64,000 nt of DNA, taken from NCBI GenBank assembly GCA_046047495.1, contig JBJOHV010000018.1, positions 46,048 through 110,047 on the forward strand. The letters run 5' to 3'. Below are positions 7,341 to 54,777 of this stretch, piece after piece. This DNA comes from Pseudomonadota bacterium (GTDB lineage Bacteria; Pseudomonadota; Gammaproteobacteria; Pseudomonadales; Pseudohongiellaceae). Within the stretch, counting starts at the first letter, position 1; every line of letters begins with the position of its first letter. A program made the translations under genes and the position numbers. Below the pieces are notes generated by a model. That model saw only the letters and a program-made list of their open reading frames with translations. It made no database searches and was not told the DNA's origin.

Positions 7341-8780
7341 TCACCCGGTAAGTAATGAGAGCTGAGCATGCAGATCATCACCATTGTCGAGACATCGCAG
7401 ATCCAGAAACACAGCGCCATCATGCAATCTTCCCAGCACCGGAATCGGTAACTGTCGGAGTGATGTGGCCAAAGCCATTAAATTACCTTGGCCTTCAAAC
7501 TCACTTTGAATCGGACGCAGGCACAATGCCCAGCTGGGCAATAGCTCTGTTGGGAGCGCCCCACTGCCTATTTGGCTCTGACAGGGCTCTAGAGTCACAT
7601 TGATCATACCTCCAATTGCTGCCTGCACAGCGGGCAATAATTGGTCTCCGACGGCTTTGATTTCATCACTACGACGTAGCAAGGTTCTGAGTACAGGCAA
7701 AGTCTCTGGAAGCTCATCAGGCTTTCTGTACAGCATCAGCACTGCCCTAAGAGCTGCCATTGTAAGCTTGTCTACGCGAAGTGCTCGCTTCAACGGATTG
7801 GCATTTATTCTCTCCAGTAAGTCCCTGCGCCCAACGATCAAACCTGACTGAGGTCCTCCAAGCAATTTGTCTCCACTGAAAGTCACGATATCGGCCCCTT
7901 GGGCGAGTACCGCAGCAACAGTCGACTCCGTGGGTAATCCAAAACGCTTCAGATCTACAAGAGCCCCACTTCCCAAGTCTACAATTAACGGTATCCGGGC
8001 ACTTCGAGCCAACTCTGATAACTCTGGCACGGAAACCGAACTGGAGTATCCTTGTATTACGTAATTGCTTGTATGCACCTTAAGCAAGGCTGTCGTCCTA
8101 TCACCGATGGCCTTGAAATAGTCCCGAACATAGGTTCTGTTGGTAGTTCCAACTTCAATCAAAACGCAACCCGCACTGGCCATGATATCAGGGATGCGAA
8201 ATGACCCGCCTATTTCCACCAATTCGCCTCTGGAGATGGGTACCTCACTGTCCTTTGCCAGAGTATTCATGACCAGCAATACAGCCGCCGCATTATTATT
8301 TACCACGGTTGCACTCTCGGCTCCTGTAAGTTCAATCAACAGATCGAGCACATGCAGGTCTCTGTCACCACGACTACCGCTGGTAAGATCAAACTCCAAC
8401 GCATGAGAATGAGCGGCAACCTGGTTCATTGCAGAAATCGCTGCATCCGGCAGTAGTGATCTTCCCAAATTGGTGTGAATACTCGTTCCAGTGAGATTAA
8501 AAACTGGCTTCATGGAATTCAGGTGTTTTTCTTCCACCAATGTCATAATCTCCCTAGATATATGGGGAATCTGCGCAATATGGCCGGATTGCCATTGATG
8601 CAATTCCGGAGATAGTCGCCCATTGATTATTCTATCTCGCCATTTCGCCAGCACGGTACGTGCCGCCGCAACAACAGCTGGTTTTCCATATTTATCGATA
8701 GCTCCCACTAGCTCAGATCGCCTCAGGAGAAGATCTACCGCAGGCAAAGTCTTTAGGAGATCTGTTTGACTATCGTCCAT
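7341..8780 (-). CDS. selA: L-seryl-tRNA(Sec) selenium transferase
   Basis: Colinear with E. coli SelA as I recall it: 'LPAVDLLLR', 'VFNLTGTSIHTNLGRS', 'NNNAAAVLL', 'SRGELVEIGGSFRIPD', 'TFSGDKLLGGPQSGLIVG' (PLP lysine region) and 'LDLRCL'. Confidence 0.9.
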   Translation of the reverse strand: MDDSQTDLLKTLPAVDLLLRRSELVGAIDKYGKPAVVAAARTVLAKWRDRIINGRLSPELHQWQSGHIAQIPHISREIMTLVEEKHLNSMKPVFNLTGTSIHTNLGRSLLPDAAISAMNQVAAHSHALEFDLTSGSRGDRDLHVLDLLIELTGAESATVVNNNAAAVLLVMNTLAKDSEVPISRGELVEIGGSFRIPDIMASAGCVLIEVGTTNRTYVRDYFKAIGDRTTALLKVHTSNYVIQGYSSSVSVPELSELARSARIPLIVDLGSGALVDLKRFGLPTESTVAAVLAQGADIVTFSGDKLLGGPQSGLIVGRRDLLERINANPLKRALRVDKLTMAALRAVLMLYRKPDELPETLPVLRTLLRRSDEIKAVGDQLLPAVQAAIGGMINVTLEPCQSQIGSGALPTELLPSWALCLRPIQSEFEGQGNLMALATSLRQLPIPVLGRLHDGAVFLDLRCLDNGDDLHAQLSLLTG

Positions 8781-19025: not shown

Positions 19026-20822
19026 ATGATGAATACTGGTCTGCTTGCCCTGCTGTCCCTGCTACCCATCCTGACTGTGGCGGTTTTCCTGGTGATCTTA
19101 CGCTGGCCAGCCAGCCGCGCCATGCCGATTTCCTATGTGACCGCCGCCTTGCTGGCTCTGCTGGTATGGCAAGTCAGTGTTGCCCAGGTGGCGGCAGCGA
19201 CAATCAACGGCCTGGTGGTTGCAGCGTCGCTCATATTCATCATTTTCGGTGCCATCCTGCTGCTCAACACCCTGCAACACAGCGGGGCCATCAATGCCAT
19301 CCGCCAGGGATTTTCCGACATCACTCCCGACCGTCGTATCCAGGTCATCATCATCGCCTGGTTGTTCGGTTCGTTCATTGAAGGATCCGCCGGATTTGGC
19401 ACCCCGGCCGCCGTGGCAGTACCTCTGATGGTGGGTCTGGGATTCCCGGCCATGGCCGCAGTCGTGGCAGGCATGATCATTCAGAGCACACCTGTGTCAT
19501 TCGGCGCCATCGGCACACCCATACTGGTAGGTATCAACACCGGCCTGTCCGCAGATCCACAGATGCTGCAATATGCCATGGACAGGGGCTTCGAGGAGTG
19601 GCGTCAGTTTCTGCATTTCATAGCCATCAAGGTGGCACTGATCCACGCCCTCGCCGGCACCTTCATTCCGTTGATCGTGACAGCGGTGATGACCCGTTAT
19701 TTTGGTCGCAATCGTTCGTTTGCAGAAGGATTGCAGATATGGAAATTCGCTTTGTTTGCTGCGTTTTCCATGACCATTCCCTATATCCTGGTAGCGAATC
19801 TGTTGGGGCCGGAGTTTCCCTCCATGTTTGGCGGACTGATTGGTCTGGCAATAGTGGTTACTGCGGCCCGCAAGGGCCTGTTCATGCCGGAAAACGACCA
19901 ATTGTGGGACTTTGACAGCAAGGAGAACTGGGATCCCGAATGGACGGGTCTGCCATTGGTGAAAGAACTGGATCCGTCTGCAGTACCTGCCATGTCCCTG
20001 GTGCGGGCATGGTCACCCTATCTCCTGGTTGCCCTGTTACTGATCGTCACCCGACTGCCCTGGCTCAATCTGGCCCAATACCTCAGGCATGCTCTGGTCA
20101 CCTTGCGCTGGCCGGATATTTTCGGCACGGGAATCACTGCGGAATTTCAACCCCTTTGGTCACCGGGCAGCATTTTCATCATCGTTTCATTGCTGACATT
20201 TGCCCTGCATGGAATGCAGCGGGCAGCTTATCTCACGGCTTGGCGCGAATCCGGCCGCACCCTGCTACCGGCCTCCATGGCACTGATATTCACCGTTCCC
20301 ATGGTCCAGGTGTTCATCAATACCAGTGGCGGCGTCGCCGGATTTGAGCAGATGCCGATCGCTCTTGCCGAAGGGGTTGCCAGCCTGACCGGAACAGCCT
20401 GGCCGTTCTTCGCCACGTTCATCGGCGGTCTGGGAGCATTTGTCGCGGGCAGCAATACGGTCAGCAACATGATGTTCGCCTTGTTTCAGTTTGGAGTTGG
20501 CGAACGCATCGCCGTGGATCCGACCTGGATCGTGGCCTTGCAGGCAGTCGGCGGGGCTGCGGGTAACATCATCTGTGTCCATAACGTGGTTGCAGCATCG
20601 GCTGTCGTCGGTCTCATTGGCCGGGAAGGTGCCGTGATTCGAAAAACCCTGCTGCCATTTGCCTACTATGCACTGATGACTGGTTCCATCGGCTTCGGAA
20701 TCGTCAATCTCGGTTCGGGCATTTTTAACGCCGGATTTGTCATCGCAGGGCTGATCACGGCAGGTATGGCCTTCCTCATCATCCGCTACGGTCATCCGGT
20801 GCGGCGTCCCATGGCGGTCTGA
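19026..20822 (+). CDS. L-lactate permease (LctP family)
   Basis: Colinear with E. coli LldP as I recall it, e.g. '[42 protein letters not shown]' and '[14 protein letters not shown]'. Polytopic, about 600 aa. Confidence 0.88.
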
Positions 20823-20857: not shown

Positions 20858-22465
20858 GTGACAGTGAGATCCGGCATCATCAGGGGTGGATTCTGTGTGG
20901 TGCTGTTGCTGGTTCTCCATTCCCAGGGCAAGGTTTACGCCCAAGGGCGGATCGACTTTCCCTTGGCATCTGCGATTTCTGGCGACGCAAGAGAGCACTT
21001 CCTGCAGGGCATTTCCCGCCTGCACGCCTTCGACTGGGCACAGGCACGCTCCCTGTTTCAACAAACCCAGTCTCAAGCTCCGCAGTTTGCCCTGGCCTAT
21101 TGGGGCGAAGCTTTGACCTACAACCCGCCATTGGGTGAGGACCTGGATCTGCATTCGCCGAATGCGGTGCTGGCGAAATTGGCACCAACCACCGAGACAC
21201 GCCTGGCGATGGTGACCGGAGAACTGGAGACCGGTTTGCTGAAGGCTTTGGAAGATTTTCTGAATACCCCAGGCGGATTGCGTGAGCGACGTCAGGCGTT
21301 CCTTGATCAGCTGGCCCGTGTTTACAGGATTCATCCCAGCGAACCCGAAGTCCAGGCATTCTATGCACTGGCCCTGCTGAGTGTCGCCGCGCAGTCTGAT
21401 GGTCCGAGCCGCCAGCAACTACACCAGGAAGCCGGACAAGTCGCCCTGCAATTGTTCAATCAGCATCCAGGGCATGTAGGGGGAGCCCAGTACACCGTGC
21501 TGGCCCACGACGAACCCGGACAGTTAAATCTGGCATTGGCGGCTGCCACCCAACTACGGGAGCTCGAGTCACCTTCGGCACACCTGCGGCATGTTGCCGC
21601 GCGCCCCTCCGTTCATCAGGGACAGTGGTATGACACTGCCGAGGCGAATGAGATCGCATTCTTCTCGGCGCGGGGCTCCTGGCAGCCGGGGATGCCTTTG
21701 GATGTCCTGCTGGAAACCCTGGAGTGGGGACAGTATGCGGACTTGCAGCTGGCAGACTATCAGCAAGCGCAGGAGTGGTTGGAGCGTGTCCTGGAACTCG
21801 TCGATCTCAACCCGGGTCTCGTGTCCGCGCAACGGACTCTTGGACGCATGCAGGCTCGCTATGCCGTCGAGTCGCAAACGTGGCTACCGTTTGAGGACAC
21901 GCTGCAGGGCAGTCCGCCTGAGCTGTTGGCGGTCGGCCTGGGGGCCATTGTTATCCACGATCTGGAGCTGGCCAGAAATGCCAATCAGCTCCTGAAAGCA
22001 GAGGCAGATAAATTCCCCCATGACGGGCTCCTGCGGCTGACACAGCTGACGCTCGAAGGAGGATTGCAATATGCCAGTGGCCAGGAAATCGAGAGTCGCA
22101 GGGTCTTCGAGGAAGCCAGAGCACAATTGTCCATACAAGGCCCCGATTATGGGCTGCCCCAGCCCATCAAGCCCACCCTGGAACTTTACGGAGAAACACT
22201 GCTACGCTCCGGGAAACCCGTTCAGGCGGCTGATATCTTCAGGGAAGCTCTCCTGAGGGCACCCCAACGTCCGGAGTCATTGTTGGGGCTGGCACGCAGC
22301 TATACGGCTATGGGAGATCCGTTCAAGGCCAATTCCCACTATCAGCGAATCCTCGATACCTGGGGTGAACGCAAATTGCTGGCCAGCAGTGAGGCCAAAA
22401 CCCATCTGTCAGTTTATGGTGAACCTTCTCCCGCAATCGATCCGGCTGCCACCTCCCGGCCCTAA
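20858..22465 (+). CDS. Hypothetical secreted helical-repeat (TPR-like) protein
   Basis: Signal-like 'GGFCVVLLLVLHSQGKVYAQG'. Ala/Leu/Gln-rich helical repeats. Co-directional and 12 nt upstream of selB. No family recognised. The start is an alternative (GTG) codon. Confidence 0.45.
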   Translation: MTVRSGIIRGGFCVVLLLVLHSQGKVYAQGRIDFPLASAISGDAREHFLQGISRLHAFDWAQARSLFQQTQSQAPQFALAYWGEALTYNPPLGEDLDLHSPNAVLAKLAPTTETRLAMVTGELETGLLKALEDFLNTPGGLRERRQAFLDQLARVYRIHPSEPEVQAFYALALLSVAAQSDGPSRQQLHQEAGQVALQLFNQHPGHVGGAQYTVLAHDEPGQLNLALAAATQLRELESPSAHLRHVAARPSVHQGQWYDTAEANEIAFFSARGSWQPGMPLDVLLETLEWGQYADLQLADYQQAQEWLERVLELVDLNPGLVSAQRTLGRMQARYAVESQTWLPFEDTLQGSPPELLAVGLGAIVIHDLELARNANQLLKAEADKFPHDGLLRLTQLTLEGGLQYASGQEIESRRVFEEARAQLSIQGPDYGLPQPIKPTLELYGETLLRSGKPVQAADIFREALLRAPQRPESLLGLARSYTAMGDPFKANSHYQRILDTWGERKLLASSEAKTHLSVYGEPSPAIDPAATSRP

Positions 22466-22477
22466 ACCTGCCATCCC

Positions 22478-24451
22478 ATGACGACGGTCATAAAAGCCCT
22501 TACCGTTGCGACTGCAGGCCATGTGGACCATGGCAAGACCTCACTGGTAAGGCGGCTGACCGAGGCCACCGGGATGGCTGACCCGGGCATGACCATCGAC
22601 CTGGGCTATGCCTATCGCCGGCTGGATGATCCGGAACCTGCCCGGTCATCCATTCAGACTCTGGGCTTTGTGGATGTTCCCGGCCATGCCAACTTCATCG
22701 GCAATATGTTGTGCGGGGTAGGCAGCGTGGACGCAGTATTGCTGGCAGTGGCAGCAGACGATGGCGTCATGCCACAAACCATTGAACATGCGGCGATTCT
22801 GGACCTGCTGGGAGTCTGCAGGGGTGTGGTTGCTCTCACCAAATCTGATGTCGTCGACCGGGCACGTATTCAGGAAGTGTCCCGGCAGGTAAACGAGCTG
22901 CTACGGGACACCAGCCTTGGCCGGCTGCCCGTGATTGCCGTGTCCAGCCGCACCGGTCAAGGCATCGATGCACTGGTGGAGCATTTCACTCTCCTTCTGC
23001 AAAGCCGAACGACCGTGGAGGACAGTGCTCACCACCCTCGCTTCTTCATCGATCGCAGCTTCACACTCAAGGGCATCGGCACGGTGGTCACAGGATTTCT
23101 GCGCAACGGCAGCCTGATCAGAGGCCAGTTCCTGCACCACTCCGCGTCCGGTCAGCCGGTCAGGATCAAGGGCATCCGGCATCACACGGTGGATCAGTCA
23201 CTGGCCACTGCCGGCCAGCGACTGGCATTGCAGATAGACGGGCACTACAGCCTCTATCAGCGCGGCCATTGGTTGGGTTCCCCGCAAGCAATTTTACCGA
23301 CTCGCAGACTGCAAGTGCGATTTCGCACTCTGGTCGAATTCACACCTCGATCTGCAACCACCTACCACCTGTATCTTGGAGCGCAACATACCCTGGTGAC
23401 CATGGCCCGTACAGGGGGTGCCGGCTCGCCTTTTTACCGTCTGCATGCGAGTGAGCCCGTGCTGGCGTGGGTGGGTGATCACTGTGTTCTGTTGGACCCG
23501 TCCGGGCGGCATGCGCTGGCCGGCGGTGAGGTAGTGGATCTGGATTCAAGCCGTAACAATTACGGTGTTGCTGCACGATTGAAGCGTTTGAAATCCCAGA
23601 CAGCGCCTGCTCACATGGCCTTGCTGACACAGCTGAGCGATCTGGAAGGTGGCATTGGGATGGAAGACTTTGCACGCTCACGGGGATTGACGGCAGCGGC
23701 AGCGCTGTCCCTGGTGGACAGTCTGCCCCCGGAAAGTTTCGTGGTCTGTACCGCCGAAGGCGGCCAGGTTACGCCAGCACTGCCATGGTTACTTCATCGC
23801 CGCCATTTCGATTCTTTGCGACACTGGGTGCTGGAAGCCCTGCAAACCCACCATGAAGAATTTCCTCAGCAGCCGGGTTTGGAGGAGCGGACACTGATCC
23901 TGCGGGCCGACCCGGCGCAACGGAAAGTACTGCCCCTGGTTTTAACCAGGTTGCGCACCTGTGGCGAAGTGACCGGACGAGCTGGCTTTTTAGCTTTGCC
24001 GCACCACAAAATAATCTTGCACCCCGACCTGTTGCGTTTCATGGACAGGTTGTATCCCCTGCTCGCCGAAGCGGGATTTGTAGCCCCCCGGACCCGGGAA
24101 CTTGCAGAGACACTGAATCTGTCCCTGGACTCACTGCAATGCCTGCTCAAGGATCTGGAGCAGGCAGCCCTGTTGGTCCGGGTCGCCCCCAACCGGCACT
24201 ACCTGCCGCAGACCCTGACCGGCATACAGGAATTTGTGGAGCAACTGGTGGCGGACAAGTCGCAAGACCCCTCCTTCAGCGTCATCGAGTTTCGCGACGC
24301 CAGCGGGATAGGGCGCAACCTGTGTATTGAATTACTGGAATATTTTGATAGTGTGGGGTTCACGCGCCGTGCTGGTAACCGACGCTTTATGACCAATCGC
24401 AATCCCGCCCGGGTCGGCATCAGCGGGGACACGGAGCCACCTGCATGTTGA
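22478..24451 (+). CDS. selB: Selenocysteine-specific translation elongation factor
   Basis: G-domain 'ATAGHVDHGKTSL', 'GMTIDLGYAY', 'VDVPGH' and 'LTKSD'. The C-terminal winged-helix region 'FRDASGIGRNLCIELLEYFDSVGFTRRAGNRR' matches the E. coli SelB mRNA-binding end as I recall it. Confidence 0.9.
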   Translation: MTTVIKALTVATAGHVDHGKTSLVRRLTEATGMADPGMTIDLGYAYRRLDDPEPARSSIQTLGFVDVPGHANFIGNMLCGVGSVDAVLLAVAADDGVMPQTIEHAAILDLLGVCRGVVALTKSDVVDRARIQEVSRQVNELLRDTSLGRLPVIAVSSRTGQGIDALVEHFTLLLQSRTTVEDSAHHPRFFIDRSFTLKGIGTVVTGFLRNGSLIRGQFLHHSASGQPVRIKGIRHHTVDQSLATAGQRLALQIDGHYSLYQRGHWLGSPQAILPTRRLQVRFRTLVEFTPRSATTYHLYLGAQHTLVTMARTGGAGSPFYRLHASEPVLAWVGDHCVLLDPSGRHALAGGEVVDLDSSRNNYGVAARLKRLKSQTAPAHMALLTQLSDLEGGIGMEDFARSRGLTAAAALSLVDSLPPESFVVCTAEGGQVTPALPWLLHRRHFDSLRHWVLEALQTHHEEFPQQPGLEERTLILRADPAQRKVLPLVLTRLRTCGEVTGRAGFLALPHHKIILHPDLLRFMDRLYPLLAEAGFVAPRTRELAETLNLSLDSLQCLLKDLEQAALLVRVAPNRHYLPQTLTGIQEFVEQLVADKSQDPSFSVIEFRDASGIGRNLCIELLEYFDSVGFTRRAGNRRFMTNRNPARVGISGDTEPPAC

Positions 24452-35736: not shown

Positions 35737-36633
35737 ATGCGTTACCCCACCGTAAAACAGCTCCGCTATTTTGTGGCTTTGGAAGAATCCCAGCATTTCG
35801 GGCAGGCGGCAGAGACGTGCCACGTATCGCAATCGGCGTTCAGCAACGCCATTCAGGAACTGGAAAGTCTGCTGGAAGTCCAGCTGGTGGACCGCACGAA
35901 CCGGCAGGTGACGATCACAGCCATCGGAAAGGAGATTGCTGTCCATGCCCGACTGTGCCTGCAGGACATCGAAGCGCTGGTGGAAGTCGCCGGGGGCCAG
36001 CGTGAGCCTCTGACCGGAGATCTCAATCTTGGGGTGATCCCCACTGTTGCACCATTCCTGCTGCCGACTTTGCTGCCAAAACTGCGCAAGGCTTTCCCCA
36101 AACTGCGCCTGTTTCTCACTGAGGACAAGACGCCTGAGCTGCATGACCAGATGATGGCCGGCAAGCTGGATGTACTGTTGTTGGCGCTACCCTATGACTT
36201 GCGGGGCGTGGAAAACCTGCCCTTGTTCCAGGACCGTTTCCTGCTGGCTTACCGGGATGGAACCCAACGGGTTGATCCTTCCAATCACAAACTCAATCGC
36301 GAAGAAATGGAGAGCGTGATCTTGATGCAGGATGGCCATTGTCTGAGGGATCACGCCATCGATGCCTGCAATTTGCGAAGCGGCTATCGAGTCAGCCGTT
36401 ATTCGGCCACCAGCCTGCTAACCCTGGTTGAGATGGTGGATGCCGACCTGGGCATCACTTTTCTGCCGTCCATGGCGGAGAAATCCAACCTGCTGCGCAA
36501 TACCCGGGTGAAGACGCTCCCGATGGGGGCCAAGAGTTTTCGCACCATAGGCATTGCCTGGCGCAAGGGCAGTAACCGGGCGGAGGAATTCAAGCTGCTG
36601 GGCGGGTTCATCAAACAAAACGCAGGAATCTGA
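35737..36633 (+). CDS. oxyR: LysR-family peroxide sensor OxyR
   Basis: HTH 'LRYFVALEESQHFGQAAETCHVSQSAFSNAIQELE'. 'LGVIPTVAPFLLP' is present. The redox pair is in 'QDGHCLRDHAIDAC', two Cys 9 residues apart as in E. coli C199/C208. The gene is divergent from dps. Confidence 0.85.
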   Translation: MRYPTVKQLRYFVALEESQHFGQAAETCHVSQSAFSNAIQELESLLEVQLVDRTNRQVTITAIGKEIAVHARLCLQDIEALVEVAGGQREPLTGDLNLGVIPTVAPFLLPTLLPKLRKAFPKLRLFLTEDKTPELHDQMMAGKLDVLLLALPYDLRGVENLPLFQDRFLLAYRDGTQRVDPSNHKLNREEMESVILMQDGHCLRDHAIDACNLRSGYRVSRYSATSLLTLVEMVDADLGITFLPSMAEKSNLLRNTRVKTLPMGAKSFRTIGIAWRKGSNRAEEFKLLGGFIKQNAGI

Positions 36634-36757: not shown

Positions 36758-36854
36758 TGGCGGAAGAGGCAGGAGTCGAACCCACCAGGCGCGCATGGTG
36801 ACGAGCCTCACCGGGTTTGAAGTCCGGGCACCCCACCGGGGATGACGCTCTTCC
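36758..36854 (-). tRNA. selC: tRNA-Sec (anticodon UCA)
   Basis: The minus-strand sequence is GGAAGAGCGTCATCCCCGGTGGGGTGCCCGGACTTCAAACCCGGTGAGGCTCGTCACCATGCGCGCCTGGTGGGTTCGACTCCTGCCTCTTCCGCCA (97 nt). Its ends and T-loop (GGTTCGACTCC...CTTCCGCCA) nearly match E. coli selC as I recall it. The anticodon loop is CTTCAAA. It has a 6-bp D-stem (CATCCC/GGGGTG) with a 4-nt loop, a long variable arm and an encoded CCA. Confidence 0.85.
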
Positions 36855-36877
36855 GCCCTGGAGTGTAGCACGGCGGT

Positions 36878-47768: not shown

Positions 47769-48221
47769 ATGGAACAGAAAACTTTCCAGGTTGATCTGAA
47801 GCTGCTGGAAAATTACCTGTTCCAGATCGACTTTGGCGAGTTTGGCAATTTCATGACGGACGAGCCCGAACCGCTGGGCGGCGGCGAGGGTCCGGCTCCA
47901 TCGGCCCTGCTGGCGGCTTCGGTGGCCAACTGCCTGTCCGCCAGCCTGCTGTTCGCCATCCGCAAATTCAAATCCGATCCCGGGGAGCTTAGCGCCCGCT
48001 GCGAAGGCACCCTGGAGCGGATCGAAGGTCGCTGGCGCATCGTGAAACTGGCGGTGGGCATCCAAATGGAAGCGGCCGCGCAAGACCTCACCAATCTGGA
48101 GCGGGTGCTGGCCATCTTCGAGGATTATTGTGTCGTTACACAGTCGGTACGCCACGGCATACCGGTGGAGGTTGAGATACGAGACGGAACGGGGGCAGTG
48201 CTGAAGCAGCCGGCGGCCTGA
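47769..48221 (+). CDS. OsmC/Ohr-family peroxiredoxin-like protein
   Basis: 'GGGEGPAPSALLAASVANCLSASL' and 'IFEDYCVVTQS' carry the two conserved Cys positions of OsmC. Length 150 aa. Confidence 0.8.
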   Translation: MEQKTFQVDLKLLENYLFQIDFGEFGNFMTDEPEPLGGGEGPAPSALLAASVANCLSASLLFAIRKFKSDPGELSARCEGTLERIEGRWRIVKLAVGIQMEAAAQDLTNLERVLAIFEDYCVVTQSVRHGIPVEVEIRDGTGAVLKQPAA

Positions 48222-52669: not shown

Positions 52670-52762
52670 CGAACCCTCTTTGTCAGTAACCGAAGGCCTG
52701 GGCTAGACTTGCCGGGCCGGCCAGGTGGCCGCCAGACGCCTTACCACTGCAGGAGCCTACCC

Positions 52763-54202
52763 GTGCCAGACACCTCTGAAAGCCAATTAGCCCTGGTGGT
52801 CAAACAGGACTGTGGCACCTGTCGCCGTATCGAGCCGGTCATTCGCCTGTTGGGCGACCATTATGGCCAGTCCCTGCAGATCCATGTCCAGGACGATCCG
52901 GCATTCCTGGCGGGCCTGGCCCCGGCCACTCTGGATGCCGACCTGGGCTATTCCTTCCGCCACGACATCGAGGTGGTGCCGACCCTGCTGAGATTCAAGG
53001 ACGGTAGCGAGACCGATCGCATCGTGGGCTGGGATCGTGCCGCCTGGCGGCAACTCACCGGCCTGGCGGACCTGGGCTCTGACATGCCGGAATTTCAACC
53101 TGGCTGCGGCTCCCTGACCCAGGAACCGGGAATGGCGGAGCGGCTGGCCCTACGCTTTGGAGCTGACAGCCTGCAGGCCCGGCAACTGGAGATCGATGAG
53201 GCCGAGGATGTCATGGAGGCATGCTTCGACCGGGGGTGGACCGACGGCCTGCCGGTGGTGCCGCCGACACCGCTGCGGGTTTTACGCATGTTGCGGGCAA
53301 CCCCGCGCAAGGCCTCCGACATCGTTGGTGTGATACCGCCGGACAATGTGCCCTGCAGCGTGGAAAAGGTGGCAGTGAACGCTGTACTGGCGGGCTGCAA
53401 ACCCGAATATTTTCCGACGGTGCTGGCGGTAGTGGAGGCCGCGCTGGACGACCGCTTCTGCATGCACGGGCTGTTGTGCACCACCTACTTCTCCTCCCCG
53501 GTGGTGATCGTCAACGGCCCCGAAGCCCGGCGCATCGGTATGAATTCCGGGGTCAATGCCCTGGGTCAGGGCAACCGCGCCAACGCCACCATCGGACGCG
53601 CCCTGCAGTTGTTGATCCGCAACGTGGGTGGTGGCAAACCCGGCGGCATCGACCGTGCGACCCTGGGCAATCCCGGCAAATATTCATTTTGTTTCAGCGA
53701 GGACGAGTCCCAGCCTGACTGGCCCAGTCTGGCCATGGAACAGGGTTTTCAGCGGGACGATTCCGTGGTCTCCCTGTTTGCCGGTGACGGTGTGCAGGCT
53801 TTCATGGATCAACAATCCCGCCAACCTGAATCCCTGGCCCGCAGCCTGGCCCTGAGTCTGCGCAGCGTGGCCCATGGCAAACTTTGCATGATGGCGGATG
53901 GGTTGCTGGTGCTGTCTCCGGAACACCGCCGGGTGTTCCGCCAGGGAGGGTGGACCAAGGCCGAGGTCAAGGCAGCCATCATCGATGCCCTGCGAATTCC
54001 CGGCACGGCAGTGGTGCGCGGCGCCGGCGGCATTGCCGAAGGCATGCCGGTGGCACTGCGGGACAGAACCCTCAACAAGTTCCGTGACGGCGGCTTCCAC
54101 ATCGCCTGTGCCGGCGGCACTGCCGGCCTGTTCTCCGCCATCATCGGCGGCTGGGTCGCCTCCGGCGAGCGCGGTAGTCAACTGGTCGCGAAAAAGATAT
54201 AA
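52763..54202 (+). CDS. Thioredoxin-fold (CGTC) domain fused to an uncharacterised ~350-aa domain
   Basis: GTG 52763 lies 7 nt after AGGAG (52751-52755). The N-terminal ~110 aa look thioredoxin-like ('LALVVKQDCGTCRRIEPVI ... VVPTLLRF'). The rest ('RGWTDGLPVVPPT', 'GNRANATIGRALQLLIRNVGGG', 'GNPGKYSFCF') matches nothing characterised that I know. It lies immediately upstream of the selenoprotein gene. Confidence 0.6.
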   Translation: MPDTSESQLALVVKQDCGTCRRIEPVIRLLGDHYGQSLQIHVQDDPAFLAGLAPATLDADLGYSFRHDIEVVPTLLRFKDGSETDRIVGWDRAAWRQLTGLADLGSDMPEFQPGCGSLTQEPGMAERLALRFGADSLQARQLEIDEAEDVMEACFDRGWTDGLPVVPPTPLRVLRMLRATPRKASDIVGVIPPDNVPCSVEKVAVNAVLAGCKPEYFPTVLAVVEAALDDRFCMHGLLCTTYFSSPVVIVNGPEARRIGMNSGVNALGQGNRANATIGRALQLLIRNVGGGKPGGIDRATLGNPGKYSFCFSEDESQPDWPSLAMEQGFQRDDSVVSLFAGDGVQAFMDQQSRQPESLARSLALSLRSVAHGKLCMMADGLLVLSPEHRRVFRQGGWTKAEVKAAIIDALRIPGTAVVRGAGGIAEGMPVALRDRTLNKFRDGGFHIACAGGTAGLFSAIIGGWVASGERGSQLVAKKI

Positions 54203-54240
54203 AGACCCTTCTCTTTCAACCAGGTAACCAGGAGGCATGC

Positions 54241-54777
54241 ATGGCAACGACGTTGCTGGATCCCACCGGTGAATTGCAGACGACTCAAAGGCCGCTCAAC
54301 CAGCGATTGGCCGGCCTGCAGGGTGTCACCATCGGATTGCTGGACATATCCAAACCCCGTGGCAAGGAGTTTCTCGATGAGGTACAGCGCCAGCTGGAGG
54401 CCCTGGGGGCTTCCGTGCAGCGTTACATGAAGCCCACCTTCACCCGGGTGGCGCCAATCGCGCTGAGCCAGCAGATCGCCCAGGAATGCGATGCCGTCAT
54501 CGAAGGCCTGGCCGACTGAGGTTCATGTACCTCGTGCAGTTTGCATGACATCATGAACCTGGAAGGTCGTGGGATTCCGGCGGGCTTCGTGGCCTCGACG
54601 GAATTCATCGAGGCCGCAGCGGCCCAGGCGAAATCCCTGGGCATCGAGCCAATGTCGGTATTCGTGCCGCACCCGATCCAGGACCGCACCGATGAGGAAA
54701 TGGTGCAACTGGCCCGTGCAGCCATCGACAGGATCGTCGGCATGATTTTGCTGCCTGCTGATCAATCACCGAATTAG
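54241..54777 (+). CDS. UGSC-motif selenoprotein (in-frame TGA at 54517-54519 read as selenocysteine)
   Basis: Track ORFs 54241..54519 and 54541..54777 are in the same frame, separated only by one TGA. Read-through gives 178 aa with '...IEGLAD-U-GSCTSCSLHD...'. AGGAGG lies 5 nt before the ATG. A SECIS-like hairpin starts at the next nucleotide. SelA, selB and selC are present in the window. Confidence 0.8.
54520..54559 (+). promoter_or_regulatory. Bacterial SECIS-like recoding hairpin
   Basis: The perfect 8-bp lower stem pairs GGUUCAUG (54520-27) with CAUGAACC (54552-59). An internal loop follows. The upper stem pairs 54532-38 with 54542-48 and includes UGCA/UGCA. The apical loop is GUU at 54539-54541, 20-22 nt after the UGA. 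Confidence 0.7.

Follow-up and report, generated by a model that had tools for sequence, protein, structure and literature searches.

A stretch of 64,000 nucleotides from a Pseudohongiellaceae bacterium (contig JBJOHV010000018.1; "the window" below) contains a gene with an in-frame TGA, which raises the question whether this codon is read as selenocysteine (Sec) and, if so, what the selenoprotein does. The gene occupies positions 54241-54777 of the top strand and has 178 codons, from an ATG at 54241 to a TAG stop at 54775-54777; the TGA at 54517-54519 is codon 93. A preliminary description made from the letters alone had joined two open reading frames (ORFs) across this TGA, and the sequence does hold one frame, 54241-54777, of which the TGA is the sole interruption. 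In translation, positions 54517-54537 give the motif U93-G-S-C96-T-S-C99. We propose that this protein, a member of the UGSC family, and the product of the gene immediately upstream may form a thioredoxin-recycled, Sec-dependent reductase whose Sec module is an offshoot of selenoprotein B, present in hundreds of mostly aerobic aquatic species and reducing, or reductively cleaving, an abundant small molecule that has no enzyme assigned to it. For this reading as a whole we estimate a probability of about 35%; several of its parts stand more firmly.

The gene is preceded by the Shine-Dalgarno sequence AGGAGG at 54230-54235 of the top strand, 5 nucleotides ahead of the ATG, in agreement with the strong site noticed earlier. 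Another ATG, at 54237-54239, lies 1 nucleotide past AGGAGG in a different frame and opens an ORF of only 12 codons; the ATG at 54241 is better spaced from AGGAGG. The count of 85 open codons past the TGA was also correct, and the downstream frame is conserved in related loci. The ORF listed from position 54541 begins at a TTG inside the loop of the RNA hairpin described below and has no ribosome-binding site. It is an artefact of mechanical ORF listing and has no real start.

The name 'UGSC family (seleno)protein', which the preliminary description had offered, proved to be the right one. With U written as C, the joined product of 178 residues scored 147.5 bits against the NCBIfam model NF041046 (curated cut-off 125) and 146.6 bits against Pfam PF24696 'UGSC family' (cut-off 25); both models extend across the TGA position. 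Searching about 5.8 billion proteins with the joined product brought up 105 relatives. Most of these are fragments of about 97-127 residues, about half of the query, because gene callers stop at the TGA; that UGSC genes are still broken in this way is a practical lesson. Residue 93 is Cys in the full-length relatives P0001, P0005, P0088, P0092 and P0093 and is encoded by TGA elsewhere, apart from some full-length entries in which it is mis-translated as W. The homologues reach through the C-terminal half and do not end at the TGA. A genome scan with one genome per species found a UGSC relative in at least 586 species, and the counts of loci given here and below are from the 80 best. These belong to Pseudohongiellaceae (82% identity), other Gammaproteobacteria, Betaproteobacteria, Acidimicrobiia, Chloroflexota, Myxococcota, Latescibacterota, Hydrogenedentota and Acidobacteriota. 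In every one of the 80 the homologous codon is TGA; G-S-C-T-(S/T)-C comes next, the frame beyond it is conserved, and U-G-S-C was found in 81 of 81 sequences.

The family has been catalogued for some time. The 'UGSC-containing protein' was named by Zhang and Gladyshev in 2007-2008 (PMC1976440, PMC2398784) and is among the most abundant selenoprotein families in the GOS (Global Ocean Sampling) data, with 255 Sec forms and 21 Cys forms (PMC2398784); a 2026 review still lists it without an assigned function (PMC13188914). The protein of the window shares with this family the U-G-S-C motif, the length, the TGA-encoded Sec with its downstream hairpin, and the ecological and taxonomic range (aquatic Proteobacteria, Actinomycetota and others). 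We found no difference: it is a typical and ordinary member of a known family, and no discovery in itself.

A hairpin of 40 nucleotides had been predicted directly 3' of the TGA, and folding confirmed it in all its parts. It spans 54520-54559 of the top strand, with an 8-bp lower stem (54520-54527 paired with 54552-54559), a 7-bp upper stem (54532-54538 paired with 54542-54548) and an apical GUU loop at 54539-54541. The loop lies at +20 to +22 counted from the A of the UGA, at the distance given earlier. At -18.4 kcal/mol (minimum free energy; z = -4.3) the hairpin is more stable than every one of 200 dinucleotide shuffles. Bacterial selenocysteine insertion sequences (SECIS elements) consist of a stable hairpin 3' of the UGA with a G/U in the apical loop about 16-37 nucleotides from it, and this hairpin has both features.

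Conservation of the hairpin was analyzed by placing the named structure on 79 distinct sequences. In register, 85% of the cells were paired, versus 26-44% when the partners were slid by one to three columns, and the covariation score was reached by none of 500 shuffles. Pairing was 96% in the upper stem (eight pairs counted) and 76% in the lower stem, where each of two pairs showed double compensatory changes in 24 cells; G23 and U24 of the loop were invariant. Since the upper stem encodes conserved residues, its conservation alone would be weak proof of an RNA structure, and the constraint on the RNA has to be separated from that on the protein. Three observations do so. The few changes seen in the upper stem compensate for one another and are silent in both arms (TGC to TGT together with TTG to CTA; TCG to TCA together with CAC to CAT). 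The CAY codon of His102, the sole free synonymous site of the stem, faces a G, so that either alternative pairs. Finally, of the 149 seven-codon windows in the gene, codons 97-103, which form the upper stem and loop, rank lowest in normalised synonymous entropy (0.26 versus 0.82; Mann-Whitney p = 7e-4): Ser98 is TCG in 69 of 71 sequences, Cys99 TGC in 80 of 81, Ser100 AGT in 79 of 79 and Asp103 GAC in 79 of 81, and the flanking codons are nearly free. The freezing is limited to these codons, as synonymous constraint over the wider range of codons 94-108 was not significant (p = 0.106). The structure of the hairpin is conserved beyond the needs of the protein sequence.

The element was also compared with the E. 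coli fdhF SECIS, using a sequence that was confirmed as fdhF in 5,419 of 5,426 E. coli genomes. Both hairpins start right after the UGA and have the apical stem UGCA/UGCA, and G23-U24 and the 3' arm U26-G27-C28-A29 stand in identical register, counted from the U of the UGA. G23 and U24 are contacts of SelB. The two differ in the loop, which is a three-nucleotide GUU or GUG in UGSC and GGUC in fdhF; in the upper stem, where fdhF has a bulged U17 whereas UGSC is predicted to fold without a bulge; and in the lower stem, which is longer and more regular in UGSC. Not all bacterial SECIS elements have such a bulged U. The covariance search that had been suggested for the hairpin region did not recognise the element: Rfam in E-value mode on 54450-54650 matched no SECIS family, and gathering mode on the whole window returned no SECIS family, just tRNA-Sec and noise.

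The preliminary description had further placed selA, selB and tRNA-Sec in the same window, and family models and ARAGORN identified all three. The gene selA (L-seryl-tRNA(Sec) selenium transferase) is at 7341-8780 on the bottom strand (TIGR00474, 542 bits, cut-off 268), selB (Sec-specific elongation factor) at 22478-24451 on the top strand (TIGR00475, 308 bits, cut-off 242) and tRNA-Sec with the anticodon UCA at 36759-36855 on the bottom strand (Rfam RF01852, 63.5 bits, cut-off 47). They are spread over 30 kb on differing strands, with no sel operon arrangement.

Family membership, the TGA in 80 of 80 loci, the Cys forms, the stability and covariation of the hairpin, the frozen synonymous sites, the fdhF register and the Sec machinery in the window together indicate that the UGA at 54517-54519 is almost certainly decoded as Sec in a genuine recoding event, by the host's SelA, SelB and tRNA-Sec and with the fdhF-like SECIS hairpin assisting. 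Should the TGA instead be a true stop, the locus would consist of two small ORFs or a pseudogene, and the split fragments of about 97-100 residues that make up most database entries would be as expected. This explanation is scarcely credible: it is opposed by the conserved half downstream of an invariable TGA, by full-length Cys homologues, by the conserved SECIS, by Pfam and NCBIfam models that span the codon, and by a supposed second ORF that would have to begin at the TTG in the loop with no ribosome-binding site.

The gene immediately upstream, here called the partner, lies at 52763-54202 of the top strand, starts with GTG and encodes 479 residues (gene call P0106, 100% identical to the window). 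Its N-terminus, approximately residues 8-110 (52784-53092, top strand), is a thioredoxin (Trx)-like domain with C17-G-T-C20 at 52811-52822; it matches TIGR01068 (E 1.3e-4) and, both by sequence and by fold, thioredoxins of the PDB (template modelling (TM) score to target 0.5-0.7). The remainder, approximately residues 125-479 (53135-54199, top strand), is an orphan core domain of about 355 residues that has no family model: no match was found in Pfam-A (2025) or NCBIfam (June 2026) even at E <= 10. A profile of the core found nothing among PDB sequences, and the full partner found thioredoxins only. Foldseek of the partner model against the PDB gave matches through the Trx domain alone, leaving the core with no solved relative, in a comparison limited by the moderate confidence of the model (predicted local distance difference test (pLDDT) 72). 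An exhaustive profile search showed that the core represents a very large superfamily, with 6,464 representatives after clustering at 50%, of which 1,666 reach E <= 1e-30; its members are named in their sources only 'thioredoxin' or 'hypothetical protein'. Many of the best 150 matches are stand-alone core proteins of about 350 residues. Members of about 710-740 residues (P0284, P0287, P0260, P0322, P0324, P0327) show two or three profile stretches and no Pfam domain, and may be duplicated cores or contain a further domain.

Four cysteines are invariant in 69 partner sequences from many phyla: C17 and C20 of the Trx domain, C115 (53105-53107, top strand) in the motif P-G-C-G-S where the Trx domain meets the core, and C212 (53396-53398, top strand) in the core motif AGCxPEY. 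Only C212 persists in Trx-less and fused forms and is universally conserved. Other motifs of the core are DGLPVVPPT, RANATIGRA, DR and PEH. The PGCGS motif (53099-53113, partner residues 113-117) recalls the U-G-S of UGSC and is missing from Trx-less core homologues. A pyruvoyl-forming self-cleavage at G114|C115 of the partner was considered and set aside, as the Trx-less homologue in locus L081 does not have the motif.

In 78 of the 80 loci, from several phyla, the partner directly precedes UGSC. One of the other two, L079, is cut at the UGSC gene, so that a single complete locus (L032) has no partner within 7 kb. The gap between the two genes has a median of 13.5 nucleotides, and a 4-nucleotide overlap of stop and start, seen in 27 of 72 loci, implies translational coupling. 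In the window the gap is 38 nucleotides and holds no promoter-like site; the only such site is upstream of the partner (TTGTCA-18-TAGACT, 52680-52709, top strand) and is weak: shuffles would give 0.6 sites by chance, and one was found. Around the pair, no third gene is kept across the loci. The flanks vary by lineage and include MutY-like, metallo-beta-lactamase-fold, acyl-CoA dehydrogenase and thiolase genes, of which the downstream thiolase is kept only in a Pseudohongiella-like clade.

The association persists where the architecture has changed. The divergent Cys-form UGSC P0093, with 31-36% identity to the protein of the window, adjoins a core homologue (37% identity, E 7e-60); here the two genes stand in the opposite order, there is no Trx domain and a separate 85-residue CxxC protein follows. 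Locus L081 (2518-5347), and likewise L082 and L083, has the order UGSC(Cys), Trx-less core of 373 residues, 85-residue CxxC protein with no Pfam match, and an aconitase X gene (PF04412, E 1.4e-71). Divergently upstream of the L081 operon lie genes for a Zn-dependent alcohol dehydrogenase and for a MaoC dehydratase. The aconitase X family includes cis-3-hydroxy-L-proline dehydratases, a curious coincidence in view of the link to PrdB discussed below. The neighbourhood, found in a single Cys-type lineage, may be a metabolic hint. Fusions of the two proteins are also present among the best 150 core matches. UGSC precedes the core in P0319, P0346 and P0363; in the opposite order, P0372 ends in '...AVGD', exactly where Sec would come next, and P0343 begins just past the Sec position.

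Because the two genes are adjacent across phyla, stay together where gene order has changed and domains have split apart, and occur as fusions in either order, their sequences make it very likely that UGSC and the partner work as a functional complex. An unexplained 'UGSC/Unknown_1' fusion was mentioned in the 2008 GOS paper (PMC2398784). 'Unknown_1' is probably the core domain of the partner. The near-obligate pairing and fusion with a Trx-fused partner go beyond the papers searched.

The GOS paper had guessed a Trx-like fold for UGSC (PMC2398784). We used the AlphaFold model of P0001, a Cys form 58% identical to the UGSC of the window (pLDDT 88.8). It is a five-stranded beta-alpha sandwich in which the Sec/Cys is located at the N-terminus of the helix after strand 3. 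Foldseek against the PDB gave generic flavodoxin-like or Rossmann-like matches (flavodoxin, lumazine synthase, CheY-like proteins) with TM scores of 0.4-0.5, and no thioredoxin was among the top 50 listed; a UGSC profile found nothing significant among PDB sequences. The predicted fold is flavodoxin-like and not Trx-like, which again goes beyond the papers searched. These data bear on the possibility that UGSC is a free-standing thiol oxidoreductase of the Trx fold and that its adjacency to the partner has no meaning. The UxxC motif does resemble the CxxC of thioredoxins. Such an explanation is nevertheless very improbable and largely refuted, given the fold of the model and the adjacency in 78 of 80 loci, the coupling and the fusions in both orders, which cannot be coincidence.

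The preliminary description had likened the spacing U-x-x-C-x-x-C to that of GrdB-type selenoproteins, and the literature bears this out (PMC6778437 citing Wagner et al. 1999; PMC13188914): the motif is given for GrdB, GrdF and GrdH, and PrdB is described as homologous to GrdB (PMC6778437, PMC13188914). When nine UGSC members were scanned against NCBIfam, the selenoprotein-B models were the sole non-self models matched, weakly and in the profile region of about 332-406 that carries the Sec. GrdB (TIGR01917) was matched by three of the nine (best E 9.7e-5), GrdF (NF040794) by five (best E 8e-4), TIGR01918 (various selenoprotein B) by two (best E 0.0025) and GrdH (NF040795) by one (best E 0.007). 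A diversified UGSC profile was then aligned in HH-suite with 18 marine PrdB/GrdB-like selenoproteins printed with U in the GOS supplement (PMC2398784). Over 99 columns, U fell on U and the +3 Cys on Cys, and L-E-x3-I-P stood equally distant from the Sec (E = 5e-4 unmasked). After masking of the Sec/Cys column the score was 26.2, compared with 12.0 +/- 2.5 (maximum 18.1) for 40 column-shuffled controls and 10.5 for a reversed control. HH probabilities were just 6-31%. The data are suggestive of a remote homology between UGSC and the Sec-bearing domain of selenoprotein B, below all curated thresholds. Two things here are likewise not in the papers searched: the register-true similarity to GrdB/PrdB, and a Trx-fused partner with an approximately 355-residue domain of a very large superfamily that has no model. 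The abundant marine 'proline reductase/GrdB' selenoproteins (GOS Dataset S1, PMC2398784) themselves have U-P-x-C followed by H/T/N-Q/R-T/A, without the third Cys of canonical GrdB, and in one subgroup, which has U-P-L-D, the +3 Cys is missing as well; these proteins, too, are probably not genuine Stickland reductases.

Within the UGSC subfamily of the window, U93, C96 and C99 are invariant in all 81 sequences, and His102 and Asp103 are invariant too. The N-terminal peptide L-L-D-P-T-x-E (within residues 1-25, 54241-54315) has invariant D7, P8, T9 and E11 and lies in a low-confidence, apparently disordered tail of the monomer model; it may be a docking segment for the partner. By inspection, no signal peptide was found in either protein. 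Of the cysteine-type residues, U/C93 of UGSC and C212 of the core alone persist across all architectures, and these two residues therefore constitute the minimal conserved pair.

In the mechanism that we propose, UGSC and the partner would form one cytoplasmic enzyme. The orphan core would bind or activate a small substrate and supply Cys212. Sec93, at the helix N-terminus of the flavodoxin-like domain, would be the catalytic nucleophile that attacks the bound substrate, as in selenoprotein B. Cys96 would then capture Sec93 as a selenenylsulfide, with Cys99 as a second relay, and the Trx domain of the partner (C17xxC20) would re-reduce the Se-S bond and in turn be reduced by cellular thioredoxin reductase. 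Direct action of Sec is favoured by the UxxCxxC motif, by the similarity to selenoprotein B and by the strong preference for Sec over Cys; that Sec forms far outnumber Cys forms is as expected if selenium chemistry is needed. Recycling by Trx fits the invariant CxxC of the Trx domain fused into the partner. On these sequence features, selenoprotein-B-like chemistry with Sec touching the substrate directly is a tentative proposal that falls somewhat short of even odds.

The minimal pair could also be read differently. In the same complex the core would be the enzyme, with Cys212 reacting with the substrate, and UGSC would serve as a dedicated selenol/thiol shuttle to the Trx domain. It would resolve oxidised Cys212 by way of a Se-S bond and then a Sec93-Cys96 bond, by analogy with methionine sulfoxide reductase (Msr), peroxiredoxin and ArsC. 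Trx fusion is typical of Msr-type repair reductases. No cysteine-type residue other than Cys212 and the U/C of UGSC is kept in all architectures; the fused Cys forms P0319 and P0346, which have no +3 Cys, would still be workable if the redox pair were U/C93-Cys212; and varied, housekeeping-like neighbourhoods would suit a repair or defence enzyme. Known selenoenzymes, however, usually have Sec in the catalytic position and not in a purely resolving one, and the likeness to selenoprotein B, in which it is the Sec that attacks the substrate, speaks for direct catalysis. We regard this shuttle role as the main rival, somewhat less likely than direct action of Sec.

The spacing of the cysteines could alternatively reflect binding. 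U-x-x-C-x-x-C-x-x-H-D would then hold a metal, a metalloid or an Fe-S cluster, or carry a persulfide or perselenide, in a trafficking or detoxification system. The CxxCxxC-type spacing and the His102 and Asp103 that are invariant in the subfamily would suit such a role, and sulfur-relay proteins include flavodoxin-like or DsrE-like folds in which a Cys sits at the N-terminus of a helix. The weak matches to NifU and CIAPIN1 (E 0.07-0.39) point the same way but are not significant. As the second and third cysteines are not conserved family-wide and the fused Trx domain points to turnover of a disulfide or selenenylsulfide, we consider this role improbable.

Several points weigh against the proposed Sec-dependent reductase. 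The similarity to selenoprotein B is far below family level: TIGR01917 gives 15.6 bits against a threshold of 602 and TIGR01918 11 bits against 65, PF07355 (GRDB) matches none of the nine UGSC members at E <= 5, and the HH E value is only 0.0064 once the Sec/Cys column is masked on both sides. The wider UGSC family keeps only the first U/C of the motif, as illustrated by CGSCSAAT (P0088-93), HCGASSS (P0319) and DCGTSTS (P0346), and some fused Cys forms have dropped the cysteines at +3 and +6. The partner has no detectable similarity to the pyruvoyl subunits GrdE and PrdA or to anything else, and confidence in its model is moderate (pLDDT 72). In L032, a metagenome-assembled genome of Caldilineaceae (JACKBC010000059.1), no partner of the Sec-type UGSC was detectable in the 7 kb to either side. 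The variation of the flanking genes between lineages gives no metabolic clue. The tally of Sec machinery covers selA, selB and tRNA-Sec, and the family is known from sequence and predicted structure.

Other features of the window adjoin or resemble parts of the Sec system. Two large ORFs (19026-20822 and 20858-22465) lie directly upstream of selB. A LysR-family regulator at 35737-36633 (top strand) adjoins tRNA-Sec; it is OxyR-like (215 bits, cut-off 329), and the 'selenium metabolism-associated LysR' model NF040786 gives it 104 bits (cut-off 250). An OsmC-like protein (PF02566) is encoded at 47769-48221 (top strand) by an uninterrupted ORF; OsmC-like proteins are selenoproteins in some organisms.

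UGSC is abundant in aquatic metagenomes and has been without a function for nearly two decades. The locked association with the partner, the fusions and the GrdB/PrdB-like Sec region turn it into a defined two-component system that is open to expression, trapping and substrate screening. Cultured carriers exist: Noviherbaspirillum album CPCC 100848 (locus L075) carries UGSC, and Hyphomonas neptunium has been named as a carrier (PMC1976440).

Two further known systems invite comparison. Trx-fused repair reductases (Trx-MsrA-MsrB, Neisseria PilB), together with Sec-containing Msr, would be analogous in combining a catalytic Cys or Sec, a resolving Cys and a covalently attached Trx in a housekeeping-like context; they differ in that no sequence or fold similarity to UGSC or its partner was detected. 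The differences from selenoprotein B are those of size, company and host. UGSC has 178 residues, PrdB about 240 and GrdB about 435, and the N-terminal part of GrdB is missing from UGSC. As far as can be detected, the partner of UGSC is not a GrdE/PrdA pyruvoyl protein, and no GrdA, GrdC, GrdD or other Grd/Prd genes are among the neighbours. The hosts are mostly aerobic aquatic heterotrophs and not Stickland fermenters; the proposed enzyme, if real, would be a new Sec-dependent reductase related to the selenoprotein B of Stickland metabolism and working in aerobes. What UGSC and selenoprotein B share is a U-x-x-C-x-x-C that follows a beta-strand and opens a helix and, if UGSC works as proposed, dependence on a second, substrate-binding subunit and ultimately on a thioredoxin-type reductant.

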